Assembly (NCBI GenBank): GCA_010093995.1
Contig: ML992501.1
Location: forward strand, 1,642,566-1,667,371
Length of the DNA: 24,806 nucleotides
Origin: Elsinoe ampelina
Taxonomy: Eukaryota
Reading direction: 5' to 3'
Made by a program: the position numbers and the translations under genes. This document shows positions 1-24,806 of the stretch, piece by piece. The notes beneath the pieces were generated by a model that was given only the letters and a program-made list of their open reading frames with translations, ran no database searches and was not told the origin of the DNA. Position 1 is the stretch's first letter; each line of letters begins with the position of its first letter.

Positions 1-170
1 ATTCTTTGAGTAATTGCCGAGCAGGTGTGAAGTGTCTCGATTTGAAGATTGTGGGATGCGTTGGAAATCAGGTGAATGATGAGTGAAGGTAACACTATGT
101 ATGCATCGTAAAGTCATCGGCGTGATCGGCCCGTCCTCCGACCATCTTAGGTCACGTGCTTCTTTCGCAT

Positions 171-429
171 TGTCAACCTCGGCAAGAGCTGTGGTGCCAA
201 GAAGGACCCTGATTCAGTTCACCCAAGGTTGAACTGAGCACTCTTTAACAACTTTACCAGTTCATGATCAATTTGGATGGTTATTGTCTTAATCTGTTAC
301 TATTCAGGAGTTCTCTGATTTAGCTATGTCTCAGTTCATCAGGTTGAGTATATATGTAGTTACAATCCACCTAATTTAGGTGGATCAGGCAGTAATAAAT
401 CTCTTTCTCTCCCCACACACAAGTCAACA
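171..429 (+). repeat. 5' LTR (259 bp)
   Basis: TGTCAACC...AAGTCAACA; matches 5276-5534 except for 6 transitions; contains a TATATA box-like sequence and AATAAA (394-399). Confidence 0.97.
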
Positions 430-440
430 GTTATAAGCCC
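430..440 (+). promoter_or_regulatory. Primer-binding site, half-tRNAiMet type (RIP-altered)
   Basis: GTTATAAGCCC directly after the LTR; one TG>TA change from GTTATGAGCCC, the complement of the initiator tRNA-Met anticodon arm used by Ty5/copia-type elements. Confidence 0.75.
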
Positions 441-597
441 GGTATAACTACCCCTGTACAAGCATATCATTTAGTGGCTTCTCTACTCGATTCATTGGTT
501 TATTCTCTATCATCTCGCTTTTCAAGCACTAGAATCTGTTAAGTACTGCCTTATCTACTACTATAGGATTCAGGTGTTAACAAAGAGATAAACAACT

Positions 598-3500
598 ATA
601 GATACTAACACACTAACAGCTAGAACACCTATTATTCTTGCTACATTAGCTGAATGGGCTAGCTAGCTATATATTATCAAGACTAGAGCTTTAAACACCA
701 AGATCTAGCACATTGTTAATCCCTAGGAGACAGTTAAGCTAGAAGGGCTCCCTAAGCCTTAGAGGCTAGATGTATCAGATTCTAACTTCTTAGCACTCTT
801 CTAGATCTATAAGGAGGAGCAAGCTTAGCATAACAAATAGCACAAGGCCTTAGTAGATCTAGCTAGCCTTATTTAGTTATTAATTGCACTATAAGTTCTT
901 ATAGTTATCTAACTAGAGGGAGATCCCTATCTATAGGCTATCCTTAGAGCATTAAAGAACAGATTTACACTATCTAATGCTATAATCCAGCTTAAGGTTA
1001 AAGCTCTCTAGAGGAGACAACTCTCTAGTCTATTATTACAGAACATGGACTATTAGCTTTAGCAATAGGAAGAGGTTATAGACAAGGCTAGGAATTACAA
1101 CCTACTAGAAGCTTAAGGCTTAAGGCTATAGAGAGACTTCTTGCTCTCTATCTTAAGGACTGAACTAGCATTTGCTAACAAATATCTTATTAATCTAGAT
1201 TTACTAACCCTGCTAACTATGCTTAAGTTAATTACTAAGTTTAGACAGTTTCACAAACTTTATAAGCTATATAGTAGCATAAAGGCTAGCAAGGGAGCAA
1301 TAGCATTCCCTATAGCTACTAAGGACTCCTTATAAGAGAAGCCTAGTCCTACTAGGGAGCCTAGATATATATACTAGAAGCAGCATAAGTAGAGTAAGTG
1401 CTATTACTTAAATAAGTATCTAAGGCTAGAAGGATAGTTACTAAACTAATAGACCCTTAAGGAGGTTAAGTAAAGGCTTAATAATAAGGCCTTAAGAGAG
1501 AAGGTTAAAGCTATCCTTACTAAGGAAGCTTACCTTTATAAGGGGTTATCCCTATTAGTGCTAATTAACACAGCTATAACTATTAGATCACACTTAGTAT
1601 TTATCTTAGCTACTAGTAACATCTTAAGTTTATAGATTCTAGATTCTAGAGCAACTAATTACATCTGTAATTACACTATAAAGGACAGATATAAGGTCAC
1701 TAGACTTATAGAACCTTATAAGCAAATGTTCTATAGTAACACCTTACTTACTATTAAGAGTTAGGGATCGATCACTATTATAGCGATCTATAGGGGAAAG
1801 CTAGTGACTATCTAACTTACATAGGTAGCTTATGTGCTATTAATAATAACTAATCTAGTTAGCCTTAGGAGATTCCTAAAGGGTAGAGTCTACTAGAACA
1901 CTTAAACTATAGAGATTAATTACAAAGGGAGAGTACTCTTCTTAGTGACTCTAAAACACAATTAATATATAGTAGAGAATAACTCTAAAGCTCCTTATGC
2001 TATTACTATAGCTATAGGAGGCACTAGAGATCCTTATCTATTAGCATTTACCTTAGTCATAACAAGGACTAATTAATCCTAGTATAAAGTTATAGGCTAT
2101 CTAAGCATAGAGTCTATTAATTACCTCCTAACTGCTATAGTTAGTAGTAAACGGACTTTAACTAAGCCTAACTTAGTTTAGCTAATTTATCTTAGGTTAC
2201 TATGTTAGACTTGTAAGCTATTAAATACTTAGAAGCTTATCTTAAGGAGCTCTAACACTGAGATTGTTATAACTAAGCCCTTTAAAAGGATTACCTTTAA
2301 CATTATTGTTAATAGGTTTACTAGCTATAATAAGGTAAGGTATATAAGCTATTTTGCCTATAGGGCTACTAACTATTACCTTGTAAGCAGTCATGCTTAT
2401 AGATATAAGATTAATAAAATCTATATTAAGATAATTACTTACATTAAAAGTAATCTTAGCTTTAAGGTTAGATTCGTTAGGAGTAACAATAAAGGGGCCT
2501 TTAGCCTTAGATTTACTATCTTCCTAGATAGTAAAGGTATCTAAAGAGAGCTATCTACTCTATACACTCTAGCATAGAATAGTTATAGTAAAAGGATAGG
2601 GTCTATACTATTAAGGAGAGCAAGGGTAGTAGCTATCTTTGCTAATCTTCTAAGGGAACTACACCCTAAACTATATAGATTAGTAGCCTATCTAATAAAT
2701 AGGACTCCACTTAAGAAGCTTAACTAGAAGACTCCCTTTAAGCTAGTTTATAGATGTCCTCTATTAATCTCCTATCTTAGGCCAATTGGTTGCAAGGTCT
2801 ATACACTAGATTATTATGTCATAAGTAGTAATAAGCTTATACTAAGAGCACATATTAGCTATCTAGTTAGATATAACTTAACTAATATATTTAGGATCTT
2901 TATACTAGCTTTAAAGAAGGTCATTAGAACAAGGGATGTTAGATTTAATAAGACTTAGTTCTACAAGCTAGAGGAGCAGCCTTAGCCTTAGCCTATTAGA
3001 CTACTTAATCTACTAAGACTGCTATAGGAAGTTAAGGAGAATATACCTCAAACTAAAGGGGTAACTAAAGGCCCATCTACACTGTAGAATCTAGTTTAGT
3101 ATCTAGTTTAGTATCTAGTTTAGTATCCAGTTTAGAATCTAGTTTAGAATCTAGCTTAGAATCTAGTTTAGTAGATTCTAACTAAGGAACTAAATAATTA
3201 TAGTTTATTATCATAGTTATAGGCTTAATAGGCTCTATTACCTCCACTAGATAATTATAGTCTACTATTACAGTTACAGACCCTAGATCTAAGCCCGGCT
3301 TAGATCTAGGAGGCTATATCACTAGAGTAGTTCTATAATGCTCTAGCCTCTCTACCCTTGACAGCTATATAGCCTTTACCTCTATCTAAAGCTGAAACTA
3401 TAAGGAGTAAGGTAGAAGCCCTAGCTAAAGGGGTAACGGAGGAGCCTAAATAGCCTAGAAGAAAGATTGCTATAAGGTTAGCTAACCTATTACCTAAGCA

Positions 3501-5268
3501 TATCCTTACTATAAGAAGGACTAGGAAACTAAGAAGGCAGGCCTATATTGCTAGTCTTGTATAGCCTTAGGAGGCTCCTAGATATTATTAAGCTTTTAAT
3601 GCTTATCTATTAATAAAGCTAATCTAGCTAAAGCTAGAACTAAGGGATAATCTCCCTCTACTACTAGCTAACATTAGGGAGCTATAAGCCTATCCTTATA
3701 GAGAGCAATTCTAACAAGCAATAAAGGAAGAATTGCTTACTCTCTATTTAAAAGACACTTAGGCCATTATGCTTGCATCTTAAGCTATAGGGAAGCTAGT
3801 GCCACTAATATGGGTTTTCACTTATAAAGTTAATAAAAAAGAAAAGGTTATTAAGTACAAGGCAAGGCTTTATATAAGGGGTAATCTTTAATCTATAGAG
3901 TTAGAGACTTATATAGCTACTCTAGCTGCTAAGATCTTTAGAATGCTTATGGCCCTCCTTACTTACAAGGATATAGAGGCTATCTAGATAGATGTTGTTA
4001 ATGCTTATATTAATAGTCCTATTAATAAGATAACCTACTATACTATTCTACCTAGATTTAAGCTTATACTAGAGGTGCTTATAAAGGACTATCCTAGTAT
4101 AGTATTATCTAATGCAATTCTCCTGCTAAAGAAGGCACTCTATAGCCTTAAACAAGCACTAGCTCTCTAGTATATAGAATTCACTACTATACTAAAGAAT
4201 CTTAGATTCACTTAGGCCCCTAAGGCTCTATGCCTCTAGCTAACCCCTAAGGTAATAATCTTCTTCTTTATAGATAATATTACTATTATATACCTTAAGA
4301 AGCACAAAGGCAAGGCTAATGCTATTATTATAGCCCTATATGCTAAGTATAAGATAAAGATGCTTAGAGATCTAAGCTAGTTCCTAGCCATCTAGATTAT
4401 AAGGGATAGGCCAACTAAGAAGCTATAGCTTAGTCAAGCTTAGTATATCCAGCAGATATATAGTAAGTTCATTACAGAACTAATAAGGCTAGTCTTAATA
4501 CCTCTGCTAGTTAAAATGCTCTAGCCCTCTAAAGGCTAAGTATCACTATAGGAGATCTACCTATACTAGTAGAAGGTAGAATCTATCAACTTTGCAGCAG
4601 TTATTACTAGGCCTAATGTTGCCTTTGCTACTTCTAGATTGTTAGAGCATCTAATAAATCCTTTACTAACTTATTAAAGAATAGTAAATAGAGTTATCTA
4701 ATATCTCTTTAAAACTAAGGATCTAGCCCTTGCCTTTAATAGTTCTATACCACCACCAATCTTCTAGGCCTTATCTAATGCTAGCTTTAGCAGTCACTCT
4801 TTAAGGAAGAGTCTTTAAGGCTACCTATTTAAGATGTTTAGTAGATCTATTAACTAGAAGGCTATAAAGCAGCTAATAGTTACAACCTTAAGCACTGAAG
4901 CTGAGCTACTTGCTCTTGCAGAAACCACTAAGCAAGCTATGTGGTAGAGGAGGCTAATAGCCTCTATCTATCCCCTAAAGTATGTTAGTATTTAGTATAA
5001 TAACTAGCAAACTATTAGACTTGTTACTAGTCCAATTAAGAAGCTTAACACACGTCTTCGCTATGTTAATATCTATTATCACTGGCTAAGACAAGAGATC
5101 AATTTATCTAGCCCTATCTTAGTGACATAGACTCCCTTAGCAGACACCTTAGCTAATGGGCTGACAAAGTCACTGTCTCCTAGCAGGTATAAGGCCTTCT
5201 TACAGCAGCTATCCCTCGAGCTTATAGTCCACTAACTAGCAACTGACAGATTCAGAGCTATTCAGTGA
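598..5268 (+). pseudogene. gag-pol polyprotein relic (gag, protease, integrase, RT, RNase H) in a single frame with many RIP-generated stops
   Basis: All motifs read in one frame: *ILDSRA (WILDSGA, 1633), FVRSNN (RSDN, about 2473), FFFIDNI (YVDD-type, 4261), SNASF (SDASF, 4774), STEAELL (4891), KLNTRLRYVNIYYHWLRQE (5041), ANGLTKSL (about 5152), ending at TGA 5266-5268. Start inferred from ATA (ex-ATG) at 598. Confidence 0.9.
3085..3171 (+). repeat. Tandem repeat, 7 x 12 bp (TAG[A/T]ATCTAGTT), in the integrase-RT linker
   Basis: Units read directly; one unit keeps CCA, suggesting an ancestral Q-(N/H/Y)-P-V peptide repeat in the pol frame. Confidence 0.9.
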
Positions 5269-5275
5269 AGGGGTG
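5267..5275 (+). promoter_or_regulatory. Polypurine tract of left retrotransposon
   Basis: GAAGGGGTG immediately before the 3' LTR start TGTCA. Confidence 0.75.
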
Positions 5276-5534
5276 TGTCAACCTCGGCAAGAGCTGTGGT
5301 GCCAAGAAGGACCCTGATTTAGTTCACCCAAGGTTGAACTGAGCACTCTTTAACAACTTCACCAGTTCATGATCAATTTGGATGGTTATTGTCTCAATCT
5401 GTTACTATTCAGGAGTTCTCTGATTCAGCTATGTCTCAGTTCATCAGGTTGAGTATATATGTAGTTACAATCCACCTAATTTGGGTGGATCAGGCAGTAA
5501 TAAATCTCTTTCCCTCCCCACACACAAGTCAACA
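5276..5534 (+). repeat. 3' LTR (259 bp)
   Basis: Direct repeat of 171-429, followed by the TSD CGCAT. Confidence 0.97.
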
Positions 5535-7822: not shown

Positions 7823-10800
7823 CTAATTCTCCACCTCAAACTTCATCTTCACCCCCATAGCTGCCAACTCCACATCCAAAAACCTTAACACCCCCGGCAC
7901 CGCCACAACCGTAACATCCCTTCCCCCGACCCACTTCTGTCCATGCCCATCCTGCCATGTCTCATTCCTCACCTCCCCTCCCTTGGCCTTCTTACTACAC
8001 CTCCTACACCTCACCATATCCGGTCCTTGCACCCCCCTACCCCTGCGCTGATACTCGCTCACCACCGGCTGACTCGCCAAAAATCCACCACAGCTCCTGC
8101 ACAGCCAGGCTTTGGTGTAGTCGCTGCAGTTCAGCAGACGATCCTGCAGGAGGAACGCCGCTCCGTGGGCCATGAGTGCATCACGCTCCATTTCGCCAAC
8201 ACGTATACCGCCTCCCTTGGCACGACCCTTGATGGGTTGGCCCGTGAGTTGCGTCACGGGACCGGTGGTGCGGACTTGGAATTTGTCGTTGACCATGTGG
8301 CGGAGACGTTGGTAGTAGACCACGCCGACGTAGATGTCGGCGCCGAGCTCTTGGCCTGTGATGCCGCTGTACATGGGCTCGTTGCCGTGGTAGTTGAAGC
8401 CCGCGCGTTTGAGTTGGTGGCCGAAAAAGTCAGCGGCGGTTTTGCCTGGCTCGTCTTTGAAGCGGAATGGGGTCGAGTCCTGGGCGAAACCGTGGAGGCA
8501 GCCTGCTTTGCCTGCGAGAGATTCGATGAACATGCCAATGGTCATGCGAGACGGGAAGGCGTGCGGGTTGATGATGACGTCGGGTTGGATGCCGGATTCG
8601 GAGAAGGGCATGTCGATGCTTGGCCATTTTTGCGAGCAGACACCCTTTTGACCGTGGCGGGAGGAGAATTTGTCGCCGATGACCGGGGAGCGAGGGATGC
8701 GAAGACGGACGCTGAGGGTTTGGCAGGGAACGGATTCCCCTGTTTCATTGCCGATGAGCTTGATCTCGTCGATGAAGGCTTCTTCGGGATCTTTGTAGCG
8801 GTGAAAGTGAGTGATACCATCACGATTGATGTATTCACCGGTGATTGGGTCTTTGGCCACCGTGTGTGAAGCAGCGATGATATCGCCTTCCTTGACCTTG
8901 GACCCAATCATGATCAATCCGTCATCATCAAGTCTTTCTCTTGTGTTGGCTTTGACCAGTCCGCCAGGCGCAAAACCAAATAGACGGCCCACTTTTGTAC
9001 TTGACCTGCTTTTTCTGCCACCAGTATCTTCGGTCAAGTCGAGCTTCTTGGTCTTGTAGACTGTACCATGACCGAAACCTCGTTCGTGTGCAGATTTGTT
9101 GATGATCATGGCGTCGTCCATGTCGTATCCTGTGTATGAGATGACAGCGACAACAGCGTTCGTGCCATTCGGGAAATTATCGAGTCCATACTCGTTGTAG
9201 AGTGGTGGTCGCACCACGGGTGTTTGTCCAGTCTGTAGCCGGTACGTCTTGTTGTCGGTCCTGTACTTGAGAGCCGTGCCTGGCGTTCCCATCGTCTGCT
9301 TCCCCATTTGACACTGGCAGTGGATTAGCGAGACATGTAGAATTGTATTAGGGAGAAATTTACCTGATAGGCATTTCGTGGCGACTGGTTGAAATCCGAG
9401 AATGGGGTTTGATTGGCGACAATGGAAAGGATATTGGTGGGATCGTACTCTACATGAGTCGAATCGTTTGAAGTAAGTTCGGCATCTGTGCAAGCAATGG
9501 TGAGATAGGGCTGCTCGAAAGGTCCTACCATATCTTGCTTATCAAGAGGCACATATCTAACAGGACGATACATTCTTGCAGGTCCAGAAAACATGTATAT
9601 GCCGGGGTATTGCCCACCATGCGAATTGGGGATATAACCAATCTCCAGATCGAGAGGCACGCCATGAGATCCTTCCACTTTCCAGTAACGGAGTGTGTCT
9701 GCGATTGTTCGAGCTTGCTTGGGTGAGCAAAATCCCAGGATCTTCCCGTCGAGCTGTACCACAACGCTGCTCTGTAACTTCGCGAGCGACAGATCTTGTA
9801 CGCCTAGGTCGGTGATCAATTTGGGAATCCGAGACACGTTCGTGTTGGTCGTTGCAATGTGACACCTGTGTGCGAGATGGTTGAGGAGTCCACAAGGAGA
9901 ACCGTCAGGGGTGTGCACCGGACACAGATATCCCCAGCTCTCTGGCAGAAGCTTTCGAACGGTAGTGGTTTTCAGTTGCGCGAAGAAGCTACCTCTGTGT
10001 ACCATACGGAAGTGACTAATGAAGCGATAGAAGTTGATTTTCTCTGCAACCACGGTGAATCCCGATACTTGCTGCAGATCCAGACCCGTGGGACTGACAA
10101 GGTTGCCGGTCGAGAGAAAGTATTCGAGCGCCTGTGCCAGATTTTCATTGGTCTTTCGTAAGATCTGCGAATTGAAGTCCTTTTCGAATTGTTCCGAAGT
10201 GATTGGCATCCAACTGTTCTTCCTACCCCATTCTCGAAGAGCCAGACCGAATGACAACAACCACTCATCAATTCTTTCTTTGATGATCATGCCATACAGA
10301 TGACCCGGTAGTAGAATCTCTTGATTTTGAACAGCATCCGGATTGTCCACCGCACACTCCCCTTCCACCAAGGAGTATAGCTTCCTGGTCATGAATAGCA
10401 ACATCCGGAACTTGTCGATGTCACTGCTCTCGGTTGAGTCCAGTGCTCCGAGATGTGGTAAGACAATTTTCCTGATGAAAGCGACGCCGGCTTCCTCGTC
10501 TGACAGATCATCGGATACGCCGAGTACCAGCCGGAACTTGCTCCCAAGATACGCTCTCGTCTTCGCCTTGCCATGGATGTCGTACGCTCGGTATGTTCGT
10601 AATAGAAGCTCCACCCTGTCAGTGACGAACTGCTTCTCCGCAATTCCCTCACTCCCTGCTGGACCAACAATGCCCTCATAAATCTCCCTGTCGTTCGTTT
10701 CTGCCAGTGCCTTTATGATCATCAAGACTGGGACTAAGAACTCGTTCTTCCGCCATGAAAATCGGAACGTGACATTACCATCGCTGAGATAGTGTAGCAC

Positions 10801-11526
10801 ATCCGTCTGTGATGTCTGGTCTGCTCTGACACTCCTAATCTGGATACCGAACTTGGTGTAGGTTGCTCCACGATTGACGAATGAAGGACGAATAATGGCC
10901 ATAGGATAGTTCCTCCGATTAACGATCAACATTCGTATCAGCTTCTCGATACCATTGACGATAAAGTATCCTCCAAGCTCTTCTGTTTCTTCCCTTTTGT
11001 TGACAAGCTGGTCTGGCGAGAGTCCTTCAAGGTGACATCTGTTCGACCTCAGCATGATTGGAAGCTGTCCAAACTCTCTGAGCGACTCTTTCCAAGGTCC
11101 TCCATTGATGCGGTATAAGAATCTGCCAGTCAATCTTCCTCTGTACGTGACATGGCGCTCTCTACATTCAACAGGTAGGATCTCCCGCACACCTGGTTGC
11201 TTGTTGCTTGCCGGCACAACACTTCGCGCCAGGAAAACCTGGTCCACCTTGACCTCGAGTTTGTTCTTGAGCGGGGCATCTTCATCTCCCTGCGAAGATT
11301 GCTGAGGATTGCCATCGAAGAAAGTTTTCGTCCCGATATCTTTCAGGGCCTGTTCGATCTGCCCGCCCTCTGCGAAAATGCCATTGAATGAGTCAACATG
11401 TGGTTTGATAGCTTGAGCTAGCGAGGGATATGCGGTCTTGTCTTTCGGTGGCTCTTGGAAGAGCTTCTGCCGTTTGACAGTCCCAAACTCGGTCGTCCAT
11501 GTTGAAGAGTCTGCTGATGGTGCCAT
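7823..11526 (-). CDS. RPA2: DNA-directed RNA polymerase I second-largest subunit; exons 11526-9364, 9313-7823
   Basis: Motifs GGYFIVNGIEK, LCPVHTPDGSPCGLLNHL, NQSPRNAYQ|CQMGKQTMG, GYDMDDAM, GDKFSSRHGQKG, YQRLRHMVNDKFQVR, GEMERD and a C-terminal Zn site. 50-bp intron 9363-9314 (GTAAAT...GCTAAT...CAG). First in-frame ATG is 11526 (MAPSADSSTW). Confidence 0.97.
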
Positions 11527-12075
11527 GCTGGCGTGCTTGGGTTTTGTTGTCGATTTACCTGACAAGCATGGCTATATTACCAGGTCCAGAGCCAGGATGC
11601 TAATGGTCGGTAGTCCTGGGCAGTGGTAGTTCGGTATGTCGTACTTCACATTGAAAGATTTCTGGTCGTCCAAGCTCAAAAAATGCATTGCAGCATGGTT
11701 TTAAGGTTATCGATAAGAAATGCGGGAGACAACTCTAAAAAGCGCCGATCGATGCCGAAGTGAAACAATTGTGGCTTCTCCACCCGCATTTCGGGCTGCT
11801 CTGCATTCCCATTCGTGATCCATCCTATTTCTGCCCTTTGACACTTGCGCCGCATCTTGACTCGACGATCCACAGCTCAAACCGACTGTCCGCCTGCTCA
11901 GGAAATTGCGACTCCATGATCGCCATCAACTTGAGAAAATAGTACATTCAAAGGCGCTGCCTGTGACTTGTGTGAGAGCCGCGACAGTAGACTTTCTGGT
12001 CGAGCAGGTTGATCCGTTTGCCTTCGACGAGTGAAATAGGCGGCTTACAGGTGGATCTGGATACAGCAGAGCAAT

Positions 12076-13695: not shown

Positions 13696-14030
13696 GGGGA
13701 ATGCTATTTACCCCCCCGTTTTTGCTAGATACCCCCCCCCAGGGCGCTAGTGCGCGGGAGGCTGAACTTATTTTACGTGCCCCTACTCACGGTATATACT
13801 TAACACCTGCCTAGCGGCGAGCGACCTAGCTAAAGATCTGTCCGGCTCGCACGAGCGTAGCGAGTAAGAGTATATATCCTTTTTATAAGGATTTAGTCCT
13901 TATAGAATAGTAGATTCTACGTAGATTGTTAAGTAGTTCGATTAAGGTTTAGAGCTACGGGCTACTCCCGCGTGGTAGCGCCTTGGAGGGGGGTATCTAG
14001 CAAAAAACGGGGGGGTAAATAGCATTTCCC
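13696..14030. mobile_element. Non-autonomous DNA transposon (MITE), Mutator-like, 335 bp
   Basis: Imperfect terminal inverted repeats of about 65 bp (GGGGAATGCTATTTACCCCCCCG... / ...CGGGGGGGTAAATAGCATTTCCC); exact 9-bp flanking duplication GTTCATTCG (13687-13695, 14031-14039); no transposase; TpA-rich interior. Confidence 0.92.
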
Positions 14031-19159: not shown

Positions 19160-20218
19160 TTACGCAAGCTTATACACAATCTTCTTCCCGCTGACCTTGC
19201 CCTCCTGCAAATCCTTCAGTCCCTCAGGGATCTTCTCAATAGGCCCCTCCCTCACATCCGCCGGATGCGTCTTGATCTTCCCCTCGGCCAACAACTTCTC
19301 CGTGAGCGCCCAGAACTTCTTCCCGAATTCGTAATCCGCCGGGTTCGCCGGGAAATCAATCTGCTGGGGACCAAACTTGAAGCCCTCACCCACGATACTG
19401 TACGCCAACGTGGTCTGGATCTCGATCTTCTCGTTGGGCACCTTGTCCCGTCCGACCTGTAGCAAGAAGGAAATCTTACCCGCCTGGTCGCCGATGGCTT
19501 CGGCGGAGATCTTGGGGCTGTCGCCCTCGCTGATCGTGTCGAAGACTTTGGTGAGCTTGCCTCCGGTGTAGTCGTGGATTTGCTTGCCCACGTCGGCGTC
19601 TTTGTAGTTGAATGTCTTTTCCGCGCCCAGGCTCTTGACCAAGGAGTCGTTGTGGGGGCTGTTGGCGCTGAGGACTTTGTACCCGCTGAGTTTGGCGAAT
19701 TGGATCGCGAGGGTGCCGGTTGCGGTGCTGCCGCCGTAGACGAGGAGGTGTTCGCCGTTGCCGGAGCCTTCGCCGGGGAGAGTGAGTTTGAGAGATTGGT
19801 AGAGACCTTGGCCGACCGTGCTGATGCCGACGCCGAGGGTGGAGGCTTCTTCGAACGAGAGGTTGTCTGGGATCTTGGTTGCGAGGTCGCCTTTGATGAC
19901 GGCGTAGTCGCCGAAGGCGCCGTCTTCGTGCTCTCCGCTGTTGACGCCGTGGGTGAAGCCAGTGATGCGGTCACCTTCTTTCAGGGACTTGGTGACTTTG
20001 GGACCGACTTTGACGACTGTTCCGGCAAGATCGCACCCAACGGTCGCGCCGTCAGATGGGATGTAGACGACGTGCTTCCAGTCAGTAGGGTTGAGAGCTA
20101 CCGCGTGGACTTTGATCAGGGCATAGTCGTCTCGGAGCTTGGGGGTGGGGACAGTGCGGACTTCTGCTGTCTTGTTTGAGGTGCTCTTCAGAGCTTTGAT
20201 CTCTGATGGGACGGACAT
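19160..20218 (-). CDS. MDR-superfamily oxidoreductase, trans-enoyl reductase / TOXD-like (352 aa)
   Basis: AVALNPTDWKH, GCDLAGTV, LLVYGGSTATG, VSGKKIVY motifs; intronless, strong codon bias. Confidence 0.93.
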   Translation of the reverse strand: MSVPSEIKALKSTSNKTAEVRTVPTPKLRDDYALIKVHAVALNPTDWKHVVYIPSDGATVGCDLAGTVVKVGPKVTKSLKEGDRITGFTHGVNSGEHEDGAFGDYAVIKGDLATKIPDNLSFEEASTLGVGISTVGQGLYQSLKLTLPGEGSGNGEHLLVYGGSTATGTLAIQFAKLSGYKVLSANSPHNDSLVKSLGAEKTFNYKDADVGKQIHDYTGGKLTKVFDTISEGDSPKISAEAIGDQAGKISFLLQVGRDKVPNEKIEIQTTLAYSIVGEGFKFGPQQIDFPANPADYEFGKKFWALTEKLLAEGKIKTHPADVREGPIEKIPEGLKDLQEGKVSGKKIVYKLA

Positions 20219-20466
20219 GTTTGATGATGTGCAGGTATTCGACGGGGGATTTGGTTGTGTGGTGTGCAGGATGTCAAGGAAGAATGTTGACGCAGTTCTG
20301 AACGAGCTGAAGATACACGCAGGACCCCTTGGACGTGTTTACAAATCAAATCTACCTGTAGCTTCACCGCCATCTATTTGCCGTGTCGCCATTCTTCAGG
20401 CTTCGATGTTCGAAAAGTCCAAACTCAATCCGGAGCTGCTCCTCGGTTGATCAATGACGTTTTTCT

Positions 20467-20608
20467 TGTTGTAACTAGCAAATCGGATCGAGAGACGTGT
20501 GTTTCATTCAGAGAGTTACAATAACCAATTTATCTACTGTGCGTGCGCTGACTTATCAGTACCAGTTCTTTAGTACTAGAGAAGCTATACTAGCCTTCTA
20601 TTATAACA
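20467..20608 (-). repeat. Putative 3' LTR (about 142 bp) of right retrotransposon
   Basis: Bounded by TGTTGTAA...TTATAACA inverted termini and adjacent to the PPT; partner LTR is not in the window. Confidence 0.75.
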
Positions 20609-20618
20609 CTCCCCCTCT
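20609..20618 (-). promoter_or_regulatory. Polypurine tract of right retrotransposon
   Basis: Plus-strand CTCCCCCTCT = minus-strand AGAGGGGGAG immediately preceding TGTTA. Confidence 0.85.
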
Positions 20619-20968
20619 AGTATAGATTGCTAAAGCTAGAGAACTGTCCTATCATATGTAAGTGAAGTAATTAGCTTATTACTTTATCTCTTTGTGATTG
20701 CTTATAATTGTTAGTGTTAGCCAATTATTAGTGAGAATTCACTATCAGTTTAGCTTATAATTGCTAGCAACAATAGTAACTATTAACAATAGCTAGGCAG
20801 CTATTGTTTATGTAAATAGACTGGCTTATAAGTCTTAATTAAAGAGATATAAGTATCTAACTAGCCTCTTTATAATTTCTCTTTCCTTTATTACACTTAT
20901 AGTAGTAGCTTTTTCTTTTATATAACACTTTTACCTTCTTACTATGCTATATTAATAATACTTATAAT

Positions 20969-22122
20969 ATAAGCGCTATAGTATAGTAACAGCTAGGCAT
21001 TAGTAGTATTACTACTAGTGCTAGTGCTCTAAGTAGTCTACTAGGTAGCGGAGGTAGTAGTAAGAAGAGAAATCCTCTATTAAGGTTGCCTAGTACTTCT
21101 AATGTTAATTATAATACTACTATAAGACTAATTACTCGTCTTAATACTCTTAGTAAGTAGCTATAAAGCATTAATAGTACAAGCTAATATTAATAGCCTA
21201 ATTAACTTAGACTTTAACTTAATAGTTAGTCGACATAATCTAGAATACTCTCCTTAGGCTTAGGATAATTAGTTATTATAACTATGCTAACTTGTATCCT
21301 ATCTAGAGGTCTATAGTAGTCTAGGCCTTTAGTACCTATAGTATACACCTAGTAGTTACTAATTCTATTCTAGTTAAGGATCTAACTAAGCAAGTTAACC
21401 TTACTAGATCTGCTAACTACTCTACTACTTTAATAGCTTCTAGTGCTACTAGTAGAGTAGTCTACTATAGTACTAATCGCTATACTAAGTGTTAGGGATC
21501 TAACCCTAGTAATAATTAGAGCAAGAGCAAGAGTAGTAAGTTTAGTAAGTGTATTACTTTACCTAGTTAGCTTAATAAGGCCTACACTTACTATACTTAT
21601 AGCAACTAATATACTAGATGTTTCTTAGCTAACTATACTCTAACTCTAAGGCCTATTAGCTCTCCTAAACCTATAAGGACCCTAAGTAGCTTAAGGGTTA
21701 TTACCTAGCCTATTCTATATAGCCTAATACACCTACTAATAGAGCTCCTAAGGTCTATCTCTTTTAGTAGTGCTTTACCTTAGAGGTTCTTACTAAGGGC
21801 CTATATACTAGAGGCATTATTAGGTATAGTTAATACCTCAACAACTTATACTAACTCTTGCTACTTTATAGTAGTCCCTATAAACTTTGTAGATCCTACT
21901 AACCTAACCGCTACTAAGGTTCGTAACTTAGCTACTATAGTAACAAACTATATAGCAGAGCTTATAAGGATTATAGCTACTAGCTACTCTAGTTAGCTTT
22001 CTCCTATTTATGCCTTTATACTAGGTCTAGCACTAACAAGGCATAGTAGGTCTAGATCTAACACTTCTATAAGGTCTACTAGTAGTAATAAGAGAAGGGG
22101 TTCTCCTTCTACAAAGAAGTAA
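20969..22122 (+). pseudogene. RIP-degraded extra gene inside the copia element, antisense to pol, one intron (21153-21196), Cys-rich DUF3716-like domain
   Basis: Stop-free frame 20996-21152; GTAAGT...GCTAAT...TAG 44-bp intron whose removal joins it to a second frame, ending KRRGSPSTKK-TAA; internal stops are only TAG/TAA (RIP products of CAG/TGG/CAA). Start ATA (ex-ATG) is inferred. Confidence 0.7.
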
Positions 22123-22254
22123 TTAGAGGTAGAGGATAGGTAGGGGTTATTAAAGGTAATAATAGTACTAAGTAGTAGATATAGCTTAGGTATAAGTAGC
22201 TAGTAATAGAGTTATAATAGCTTTTCCTTTCTCTCTTCTTAATAATAAAACAAT

Positions 22255-24200
22255 TTACTTTAAGCTTTAGACAAATAAGATAGCTTAATAAGTAGTAGTA
22301 GCATAAATAATATACTTAAAATAATAATATATATAAAATCTAAATAAGTATATAGTGTAGATATATACTAAGTAATTAGCCTTTACTAATTAATTAAGGA
22401 TCTTATTAGGAGACTTAGGCTTTATAAGTGCATTAGCTAATTACTAAGTTATATTAATATACTTAAGCTTAATTACTCTAAGTTTATACTACTCTCTATA
22501 GTAATAATTCCTTAAATTAACATACTTAGATCTCCTTAAATTAGTATAATCTCTTATAAGTTTAATAGCTAACTTATTGTTAATAAAGACTATAGTTAGG
22601 CTAAGGTAAATATTAGCAAGTAGCCTAAGTTTAATAATGAGATTTCTTAACTAATTAATCTCTCTATAGGTCTTAGTAAGGGTAAGGTATTTAGCCTTAG
22701 TGCTTAATAATATAATAATCTTCTATAGCCTTAACTTCTAAATAACTAGTGTACTAAGTATGTAAATAATAGTGCTAGATATAGATCTTGTAGTTAATCT
22801 ATCTCTAGCAAAGTCTAAGTTAAAGTAGGCCTTAATTGTATTAACTAATAGTCTATTAGTCTTCTTAAAGGTAAGGCCCTTTACAATAGTTCTATTAATA
22901 TACCTCTAGATCTACTTAGCTATAACTACATAAGCTATAGTTAGATTCTAAAGGAACCTAGCTAGGTAATTAGTGGTATAGCTAATATTAGGCCTTATGT
23001 TATTAGCTAGATATTATAATTTACTAATAATTCTATTAAATGTCTTATAGTACTAAGCATTAACTTAGCTATTAGTTAGTTTATAGAGTTAATTAATAGG
23101 ATACTTTATAGTTCTTACTTAGTAAAGATTATAACCTTTAAGCTTCTCCTTTAAGTAGTGTAATTGCTTAATCTTAATTAAGTTCTTAGTTCTATAAAGT
23201 TAAACACTAAGGAAGAGGTTTAAGTTTATAATCTTCATTAGAAACTTAAGATAAAGATCTTTAACTAGCTTGTCTATATGCTTCTACCTAGTAGTAATAA
23301 TCCTAAAGTTATTAACATACATAAGAACTATATAATACTTGTTAATAAAGAGATAGGCATTACTATAGGATCTAATAAAACTAAGTANNNNNNNNNNATT
23401 AACTTAGCTATTAGTTAGTTTATAGAGTTAATTAATAGGATACTTTATAGTTCTTACTTAGTAAAGATTATAACCTTTAAGCTTCTCCTTTAAGTAGTGT
23501 AATTGCTTAATCTTAATTAAGTTCTTAGTTCTATAAAGTTAAACACTAAGGAAGAGGTTTAAGTTTATAATCTTCATTAGAAACTTAAGATAAAGATCTT
23601 TAACTAGCTTATCTATATGCTTCTACCTAGTAGTAATAATCCTAAAGTTATTAACATACATAAGAACTATATAATACTTGTTAATAAAGAGATAGGCATT
23701 ACTATAGGATCTAATAAAACTAAGTAATAGAAGTGCCTTAACTATAGCGTTATACTAGAGGGCAGTAGCTTACTTAAGCCTATATAAGCCCTTTATAAGA
23801 ACAATAAGCTTGTCCTGTTTACTAGGAATTAGTACGCCTTCTAGGCAGGAGATATAGTTCTTAATATTAATATCTAGTCTAAGGAATATAGTAACTACAT
23901 CTACTATTATAATAACCTAGTTATAATAAAGAGTATATACAAGGATTACTCTCCTAGTTTTAGCTCTTAGTGTTAGTATAAAGGTTCTAACAAAGTTAAT
24001 ACCTACTCTTTAAGTAAAGCCCCTTATAGTCTAACAAGCCTTATATCTTTTAACTTTGCTATTAGTAAGCCTCTTAGTCTTAAAGACCTATTTACCTATT
24101 ATTAGCCTAACACCTCTTAGTGCCTAAGATTTCTTAATGATTAAAAAGGTTTTAGAGTTAGTTAGAGCCTTCTACTCTACCTCTATTATAGCTTACTAGT
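22255..24200 (-). pseudogene. Reverse transcriptase / RNase H relic of right copia element (approximate bounds)
   Basis: Degenerate copia RT and RNase H motifs read on the minus strand after reverting TpA. Confidence 0.85.
23388..23397. other. Assembly gap (10 N) flanked by a 329-bp duplicated overlap
   Basis: 23059-23387 is repeated at 23398-23726 directly across the N run. Confidence 0.95.
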
Positions 24201-24806
24201 AATAACCTTTAGGAGAGGATAGTATATCTCTTACTATTTATAGGTCTAGCTTAAAATTAATAGCTATAGATCTAATAATCTTACTATTGTTAAGTTTCTT
24301 ATAATTAATCTAGCGATGTATTCTAAGGGACTTTCTAATAGTTTCTTATAGTAAGAGAGATCTCTTCCTTTTACTAGTTAGAGGTTGTATGTTAAATAGT
24401 GTAATAAGGAAGTTAATATCCTTATTCTATATATACATTAGTAGTTAATTAACATTAACTATAGGATTAAAGGTTAAATATAGTTCACTAATAACTTTAG
24501 GTAGTAGTGTTATAAGGTCTTTACCTTTATAATTAGCAACATTAAGTTGCTCCCCCTATTTATTAACAGGTTAAGGATCTAGTTTAGGATGTTAGTGTTA
24601 CTCCTTCTATTCTTTAATAGGGGTAGATAATTGTTGTTTATATCTAGAGATAGAAGGGTAGTTAGATATTAGTTATTTAACTTAAGGTTGTTTAGCCTAA
24701 GTAGTTTATAGATTCTTATAACTAAAGGGTAGTTAGTTATAGCTATAGCCTTAATTATAATTACTACTAAATGTCTACTCCCTCTAAAGCTATAAAGCCT
24801 TAGGTT

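Follow-up and report, generated by a model that had tools for sequence, protein, structure and literature searches.

A stretch of 24,806 nucleotides of Elsinoe ampelina DNA (GenBank assembly GCA_010093995.1, contig ML992501.1, positions 1,642,566 to 1,667,371; referred to here as the window) ends within a Ty1/copia retrotransposon in which ~1.9 kb separate the end of pol (~22345) from the element terminus at 20467. This raises the question of what occupies the interval, and in particular whether the open frames at 20969-22122, on the strand opposite pol, are the remains of a gene. The element has been altered by repeat-induced point mutation (RIP), which introduces only C-to-T and G-to-A transitions, makes no insertions or deletions and leaves the purine or pyrimidine class of each base unchanged. 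Using these classes, we found that a plus-strand open reading frame (ORF) of at least 292 codons was intact in this interval before RIP. With a little more confidence than doubt, we interpret the segment as the RIP-killed remains of an additional antisense gene in a high-copy Ty1/copia family, of the aORF-3R kind, which is antisense and lies between pol and the 3' long terminal repeat (LTR). To judge from the sequence, the formerly intact gene was real and probably had two exons.

The host is a minus-strand Ty1/copia element degraded by RIP, which looks unrelated to a second copia element at the left of the window and extends beyond the window. A Pfam search with the six frames of 20500-24806 returned a match to RVT_2 (PF07727) on the minus strand (E 5.2e-23, 82 bits compared to a cut-off of 31.6), in agreement with an initial annotation of this DNA, which had placed pol on the strand opposite the antisense frame. 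The end of RNase H is marked by ANALIK, within 22440-22393, the RIP form of ADxxTK, from which it differs solely by the RIP-type changes D to N and T to I; the ADxxTK motif at the RNase H end is defined in PMC5445492. The features on which the argument rests are these:

20969-21152, plus strand: putative exon 1, frame mod 2, with an uncertain start (ATA at 20969 or 20978 as a RIPped ATG)
21153-21229, plus strand: putative intron of 77 nt, with GTAAGT donor and TTAG acceptor
21230-22122, plus strand: putative exon 2 of the antisense gene, frame mod 1, with TAA at 22120-22122; coding signal strong from 21244
21454-21633, plus strand: Tyr/Cys/His-rich segment, a possible former Cys/His metal-binding module and the part earlier described as 'DUF3716-like'
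22342-24804, minus strand: reverse transcriptase and RNase H part of pol, frame -mod0, with RVT_2; runs off the window

The antisense frame and its intron

Between 21244 and 22119, stops interrupt 9 of the 292 codons of frame +mod1, compared to 10-27 per 100 in other frames. Over 21250-22000 the stop rate in +mod1 is 3-4 per 100 codons, close to the 3-8 of the pol frame and unlike the 10-27 of most other frames. The initial annotation had reported two stops in 21721-22119 and had quoted a raw translation of 21406-21621; we counted exactly two stops, and the quoted letters are correct. In addition, we counted potential stops, defined as codons of the pyrimidine-purine-purine class, which comprise all stops together with Trp, Gln and CGR-Arg codons and make the count blind to transitions. 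By this measure +mod1 contains 10 potential stops in the same 292 codons, as opposed to 15.6% in the other five frames (P 2e-11), and stretches of pol contain 18/349 (5.2%), 41/469 (8.7%) and 99/1366 (7.2%). In first-order Markov simulations of the region, which match its composition, none of 2000 runs brought the potential stops of any 292-codon window, in whichever frame, down to 10, the minimum being 16.

The purine/pyrimidine pattern of the segment also shows a 3-base periodicity. This was detected in four of the five 300-nt windows between 21217 and 21817 (p 2e-6 to 6e-4; window 21517 reached p 0.14 only), at a strength like that in pol and in phase with +mod1, with a purine-rich first position (RNY phase); it is absent from 20467-20917. 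The coding region that the initial annotation proposed on the antisense strand, between pol and the end of the element, is thus borne out by the depletion of potential stops, the simulations and the periodicity.

These results bear directly on whether there was a gene at all. The open frame might be a composition by-product in RIP-saturated DNA, or the mirror of a minus-strand feature, and in favour of this, long stop-free runs occur in several frames here, +mod2 is also open for 55 codons across the 'Cys-rich' part, and no homologue was found in the databases searched (proteins, Pfam and metagenome contigs). Against it stand the simulations, none of which reached the observed depletion, and the periodicity in the RNY phase of +mod1. 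The open run in +mod2 is explained by the pyrimidine-rich third positions of +mod1 (0.26 purine), and the codon-aligned minus frame contains 28 potential stops in 292 codons versus 10 in +mod1. We regard the absence of any gene as extremely unlikely.

Upstream of this frame, a stop-free run of 56 codons at 20990-21157 in +mod2 coincides with putative exon 1. The purine fractions of this exon by codon position are 0.71/0.52/0.30, the periodicity of 20917-21217 (p 4e-4) is in the phase of +mod2, and 3 of its 61 codons are potential stops (P 0.01), which gives moderate support to a coding origin. GTAAGT sits exactly where the +mod2 frame of exon 1 closes, and both exon frames are closed over 21153-21243, with 8/30 and 9/29 potential stops. 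Since RIP makes no insertions or deletions, an intron is the best reading of a frame change that falls at a consensus donor, and the sequence makes an intron between the two coding-like segments likely.

The initial annotation had proposed a 44-nt intron at this position. Its signals are all present (GTAAGT at 21153-21158, GCTAAT at 21183-21188 and TAG at 21194-21196), and removing 21153-21196 does join 20969-21152 (mod 2) to 21197-22122 (mod 1) in frame, giving 1110 nt. The 77-nt version nevertheless fits better: among eight in-frame GT..AG pairs, donor 21153 with acceptor 21229 leaves 10 stops, compared to 14 for the 44-nt version, directly after which 6 stops fall within 16 codons. The intron would accordingly be one of 77 nt, a length of 44 nt being less likely.

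The two segments would then be exons joined by removal of the 77-nt intron, encoding a product of ~360 residues. On the genomic (sense) RNA the signals of this intron would be reverse-complemented, which would allow it to outlast retrotransposition. The promoter for its transcription may have been in the LTR or in the ~300 nt that separate the LTR from exon 1.

Repetition in the source organism and the predicted product

We examined the repetition of the segment in read contigs from two runs of one organism (X1 and X2), taken at a likeness of at least 80% on 20000-23380; 32 of the 8229 contig pieces were listed individually. Summed contig depth does not equal copy number and was used only to show many-fold repetition. 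At this threshold 5608 contigs matched in X1 and 2362 in X2. Every bin of 20452-23380 was covered, with a summed depth of 60-200 thousand (23 thousand in one X2 bin) compared to ~151 for the unique flank, and the summed depth, which again is no copy number, was 60-98 thousand over the gene and 71-120 thousand over pol. Differences between copies are almost all transitions, and since most contigs are at least 95% alike, the copies are RIPped near saturation. The many-fold repetition in the X1 and X2 contigs argues against a one-off nested insertion, which the initial annotation had named as the alternative to a gene belonging to the element. Because each copy seen is RIP-mutated, nothing functional is left of the gene now.

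In run X4, which comes from another organism, there was almost no cover of 20904-22146 with both sides covered, although a part without cover is no evidence in itself. One 709-nt X4 contig matched 21643-21793, with left-out letters summing to 15.

The central part of the product would have contained a Cys/His-type metal-binding stretch. Tyr, Cys and His together make up 11 of the 60 residues in 21454-21633, which equals the maximum of 429 pol windows (99th percentile 10.7), and several Tyr and Cys codons there stand in CxxC-like spacing. The candidate Cys positions are present Tyr codons, which before RIP could equally have been Cys, His or Tyr, and we consider a former Cys/His module at 21454-21633 plausible from the sequence. 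The product may have been a nuclear one that influenced how the element itself was expressed or silenced, an idea we put forward only tentatively. The initial annotation had deduced a nuclear protein from basic clusters at the N- and C-termini; this is not supported, as it rests on Lys and Arg codons that RIP itself creates, and such clusters are an unsafe guide because RIP converts GAR (Glu) to AAR (Lys).

The DUF3716 label given to the Cys-rich part was not supported either. DUF3716 (Pfam PF12511) gave no match to the six frames of 20500-24806 at E<=0.1, nor to the ORF and to 21406-21639 alone at E<=10, and no protein relative was found. When stops were read as X, the six frames of 20500-24806 yielded no Pfam match beyond RVT_2. 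An exact 26-mer of the ORF was not found in metagenome contigs. We also compared the antisense ORF with the rest of the window, where no similar stretch was found (best non-self E 0.075), and on this result rejected the idea that the ORF is a copy of other sequence in the window. A more specific account seems to us very doubtful, namely that the copia family gained, and retained in antisense, a cellular gene with an intron whose product was a small nuclear protein of the Cys/His metal-binding kind, perhaps of DUF3716 type.

The ends of the element and rival explanations

Whether the gene lay inside the element's internal region depends on where the 3' LTR begins. The features that bear on this are the following:

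20467-20675, minus strand: outer end of the 3' LTR, with terminus TGTTGTAAC on the plus strand (TGTTG... at 20467); less RIPped
20664-20674, no strand: left copy of an 11-nt direct repeat GAAGTAATTAG, bounding a segment that one type of contig skips
20876-20889, minus strand: purine run of 14, an earlier candidate for the polypurine tract (PPT), with a second run at 20909-20919; RIP intensity rises here
22116-22126, no strand: right copy of the 11-nt direct repeat GAAGTAATTAG, overlapping the stop codon of the antisense gene
22211-22240, minus strand: purine run of 20 nt (22240-22221), longer than any other purine/pyrimidine run in 20467-22400, followed by one C and TATTATAAC

In this right-hand element the window covers only the 3' LTR end. 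The terminus at 20467 is fixed by many loose contig ends with differing flanks at 20465-20467, and one loose end carries TATTA, the RIP form of the terminus, beside a post-LTR motif that also occurs in the left element. In run X3, which we guess to be RNA, 60-90-nt pieces of the LTR end (20467-20650) were seen inside GC-normal sequence on both sides; these pieces may be LTR fragments in other transcripts or loci.

The inner limit of the LTR has three candidate positions, ~20675, ~20875 and 22219. The first would give an LTR of ~210 nt, and the summed depth is about twofold over 20452-20677 only; in one fungal copia clade the LTRs are reported to be 138-311 nt long, with one of 545 nt (PMC5445492). 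At the second, RIP intensity and periodicity shift near 20870, beside the 14-nt purine run, where no good LTR-terminus motif is found. The initial annotation had placed the PPT at 20876-20889 or 20909-20919, and both are outdone by the 20-nt run at 22221-22240. The third candidate would make the LTR 1753 nt long, with the antisense gene inside. There, ~105 nt after pol, the purine run is followed by one C and TATTATAAC, which corresponds to the inverted repeat of the LTR terminus TGTTGTAAC in RIP form, an arrangement as in the left element. From its sequence, 22211-22240 would be a PPT/LTR-start junction of canonical form or what is left of one. The antisense ORF ends ~100 nt from this purine tract. 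The tract is crossed by a minus-strand run of 68 codons free of stops (22112-22315, frame -mod1), with 1/72 potential stops and no purine/pyrimidine periodicity (0.41/0.46/0.38); this run is probably compositional.

A transition-tolerant comparison of 20467-20900 with 22100-22340 gave no significant similarity (z 1.3 and below). A relic LTR at 22100-22340 was also considered and rejected, as it has no similarity to the outer part of the LTR. No internal repeats were found in purine/pyrimidine space except an assembly duplicate in pol.

Several of our observations weigh against an antisense gene of the internal region as the explanation of the segment. A canonical PPT and LTR-start motif (22211-22240) lies between pol and the gene, which suggests that the gene is downstream of the original LTR start and outside the classic internal region. 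Among the matches listed, one contig each in X1 and X2 joins 20663 to 22116 and lacks the 1452 nt that include the gene; at this junction 11 letters fit both sides, the depth is ~198 compared to 151 for the unique flank, and the joined form may be either a microhomology deletion or a trace of the segment's arrival. None of the contig pieces listed (32 of 8229) bridges the borders of the segment. Exon 1 is weakly supported, -mod0 has equally few potential stops there (2/60), and the start of the exon is not identifiable, with two stops within 7 codons after the ATA at 20969. The pol regions, too, contain off-frame runs of 45-93 codons without a stop, so that open runs alone are weak proof of coding. 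Finally, the searches for relatives were blank: in Pfam at E<=10 the ORF, exon 1 and the Cys-rich part gave only a chance-level match to DUF6457 (E 0.23), the ORF with stops read as X had no match at E<=0.001 in 1.84 billion representative proteins, none of 1142 word-sharing protein candidates reached E<=10, and of 287 pattern matches in metagenome contigs none was confirmed. Blank protein and Pfam searches count for little here, because the RIPped left element yields just 3 Pfam families, compared to the 6-7 listed families carried by most of the intact copia polyproteins compared, and because the RIPped pol (821 aa) shares only 22-28% identity with 10 intact polyproteins.

The gene may instead have lain inside a 3' LTR starting at 22219 and running 1753 nt to 20467, either a natively long LTR or an LTR of ~300 nt with a 1452-nt insertion in U3 that was afterwards copied along with it; the antisense ORF would then be cargo of the LTR and present twice per element. 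One base beyond the region's best purine tract stands the 9-nt terminal inverted repeat in its RIP form, the left element shares this layout, and the other candidate LTR starts lack a purine tract and terminus motif of such quality. The contig joining 20663 to 22116 would moreover give a 301-nt LTR with perfect termini and an 11-nt repeat as an insertion might leave. On the other hand, the depth over the gene equals that over pol, and a roughly twofold depth is confined to 20452-20677 in both X1 and X2, which is a weak argument, since copy number cannot be read from depth. With a depth near that of the unique flank, the joined form is rare, and in 1.75 kb of this composition we would expect chance alone to produce an exact 11-mer repeat about 1-2 times. 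Three occurrences of the motif GTTAYAAYA were counted in 4.3 kb, and an LTR of 1753 nt would exceed the lengths reported for the fungal copia clade mentioned above. We judge an LTR-borne gene unlikely.

Alternatively, the segment could be a passenger, that is, a host gene, or a piece of another mobile element, that was picked up by read-through or template switching or inserted once into a master copy, and was co-amplified without having a role. Such an arrival would fit the 11-nt repeats on either side of the 1452 nt and the PPT/LTR-start relic that separates the gene from pol, and an intron of spliceosomal type would indicate a cellular origin. LTR elements are known to transduce genes (PMC7264820), and in another case, REP9-1 and REP9-2, genes with DUF3716 are found in a class II transposon (PMC8232023). 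Transduced genes, however, are typically present in one or few copies (PMC7264820), whereas here there are thousands of contigs. As far as can be read from the sequence, the 11-mer GAAGTAATTAG is the only terminal repeat, inverted or direct, of the 1452-nt piece, and the window holds nothing similar elsewhere. The frame was intact when the copies were made, which fits selection or a very recent capture. A passenger appears quite improbable, and an antisense gene that belonged to the family remains our preferred explanation.

Surroundings of the element and known systems

The window contains two AT-rich blocks with strong RIP signatures, 1-5500 and 20467-24806, with GC-normal genes between them; TpA/ApT is 1.6-2.7 in the AT-rich blocks versus 0.57 in the genes. 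Two further features concern the copia elements themselves:

171-5534, plus strand: left copia element, complete and RIP-affected, with RVT_2 and two other retroviral domains
23059-23726, no strand: assembly gap of 10 N at 23389-23398 with a 329-nt flanking duplicate, 99.7% identical at an offset of 339 nt

The gap and the 329-nt duplicate lie inside the right-hand pol and are most likely an assembly artefact. The left element has LTRs of 259 nt each (171-429 and 5276-5534), which are 97.7% identical and have TGT..ACA ends, and it is flanked by a 5-bp target duplication, CGCAT. At its 3' end the pol stop is followed after ~45 nt by a short purine tract, GAAGGGG, and then by the 3' LTR (TGTCAAC), as the initial annotation had it in stating that pol of this element ends at the PPT. 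Directly after its 5' LTR, in the region 430-448, stands the 13-nt sequence GTTATAAGCCCGG, the reverse complement of which adjoins the LTR end in other copies of the right-hand family (loose contig end at 20472). Since GTTATAAGCCCGG is found at both, the two otherwise dissimilar copia families have in common a post-LTR motif that resembles a primer site. This motif did not match the GalEa CHS/hairpin-site sequences given in PMC5445492, and because it differs from the GalEa hairpin sites we make no assignment to the GalEa clade.

In the GC-normal region between the elements, two long open frames at 7823-11571 on the minus strand encode the RNA polymerase I subunit RPA2, with what appears to be an intron or frame change dividing them near 9325-9538. 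Among named relatives of this protein the best is that of Elsinoe fawcettii, with 91% identity, compared to 69% for Plenodomus lingam, which indicates an Elsinoe-like Dothideomycete. RLC_Pholy of Leptosphaeria maculans, a family of 6,981 bp with a 281-bp LTR and 1,020 copies (PMC3105345), was considered as a family name for the right-hand element and rejected on these RPA2 values. A 66-nt inverted repeat (13696-13760 and 13965-14030, 89% identical) lies in the same GC-normal region.

We finally compared the antisense gene with known systems. A copia element with an extra gene had been presented in the initial annotation as exceptional, which overstated the case, as antisense ORFs between pol and the 3' LTR are already known in plants and in Boty (PMC7264820). 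Antisense additional ORFs (aORFs) at this position are described as 'relatively frequent' in plant gypsy elements and occur as the gene brtn in the fungal Boty element too (PMC7264820); the functions of aORF products are given as unknown and the products are suspected to be nuclear (PMC7264820, PMC8365987). In the main survey of ascomycete copia elements, a search for the terms 'antisense', 'additional ORF' and 'extra' found none of them.

The aORF-3R genes of plant Ty3/gypsy elements include gene23 of maize Grande and those of rice RIRE2, Silene Retand and Phaseolus PvRetro13 (PMC7264820). Like them, the gene described here follows pol, runs opposite to gag-pol and has no clear database homologue. 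The plant genes are described as present across the copies of their families; here all bins are well covered, but one contig lacks the segment. Unlike the plant cases, the host is a copia element of a Dothideomycete fungus rather than a plant gypsy element, and the frame change with a consensus donor suggests an intron. The copies here are also RIP-dead, and the gene is known from sequence alone. The brtn gene of Boty-like elements of Botrytis cinerea and Sclerotinia is likewise an additional gene of a fungal LTR retrotransposon, placed in antisense after pol and before the 3' LTR (Zhao et al. 2011, as cited in PMC7264820 and PMC8365987). Boty, in contrast, belongs to the gypsy superfamily and comes from another fungal class, and the two genes were compared by description only.

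A further parallel is offered by HBZ of human T-cell leukaemia virus type 1 (HTLV-1), an antisense, spliced gene whose transcript starts in or near the 3' LTR and whose product is a nuclear regulator. The gene described here shares with HBZ the antisense orientation at the 3' end of a retroelement, although HTLV-1 is a human retrovirus and the two have no sequence relation. The antisense HTLV promoter is mentioned in PMC7264820. In Zymoseptoria tritici, another Dothideomycete, the DUF3716 genes REP9-1 and REP9-2 lie in the class II transposon IS3EU (PMC8232023). They would represent the same domain as mobile cargo only if the DUF3716 guess were right, and DUF3716 was not detected in our searches; the carrier there, moreover, is a DNA transposon and not a retrotransposon. 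Were the DUF3716-type reading true, two unrelated transposon classes would have recruited the same accessory factor, for example to counter genome defence.

Taken together, the weight of this case is limited, as RIP has killed the gene in this genome, no relatives of its product can be recognised and arrangements of this kind have been described before. The analysis illustrates that purine/pyrimidine codon classes, which RIP cannot change, allow a coding frame to be recovered from DNA saturated with RIP. If our interpretation is true, a copia-type, intron-bearing example from a Dothideomycete would be added to the few fungal LTR elements for which an antisense accessory gene is described, a set that, as far as literature searches show, has so far rested on Boty and its brtn gene.

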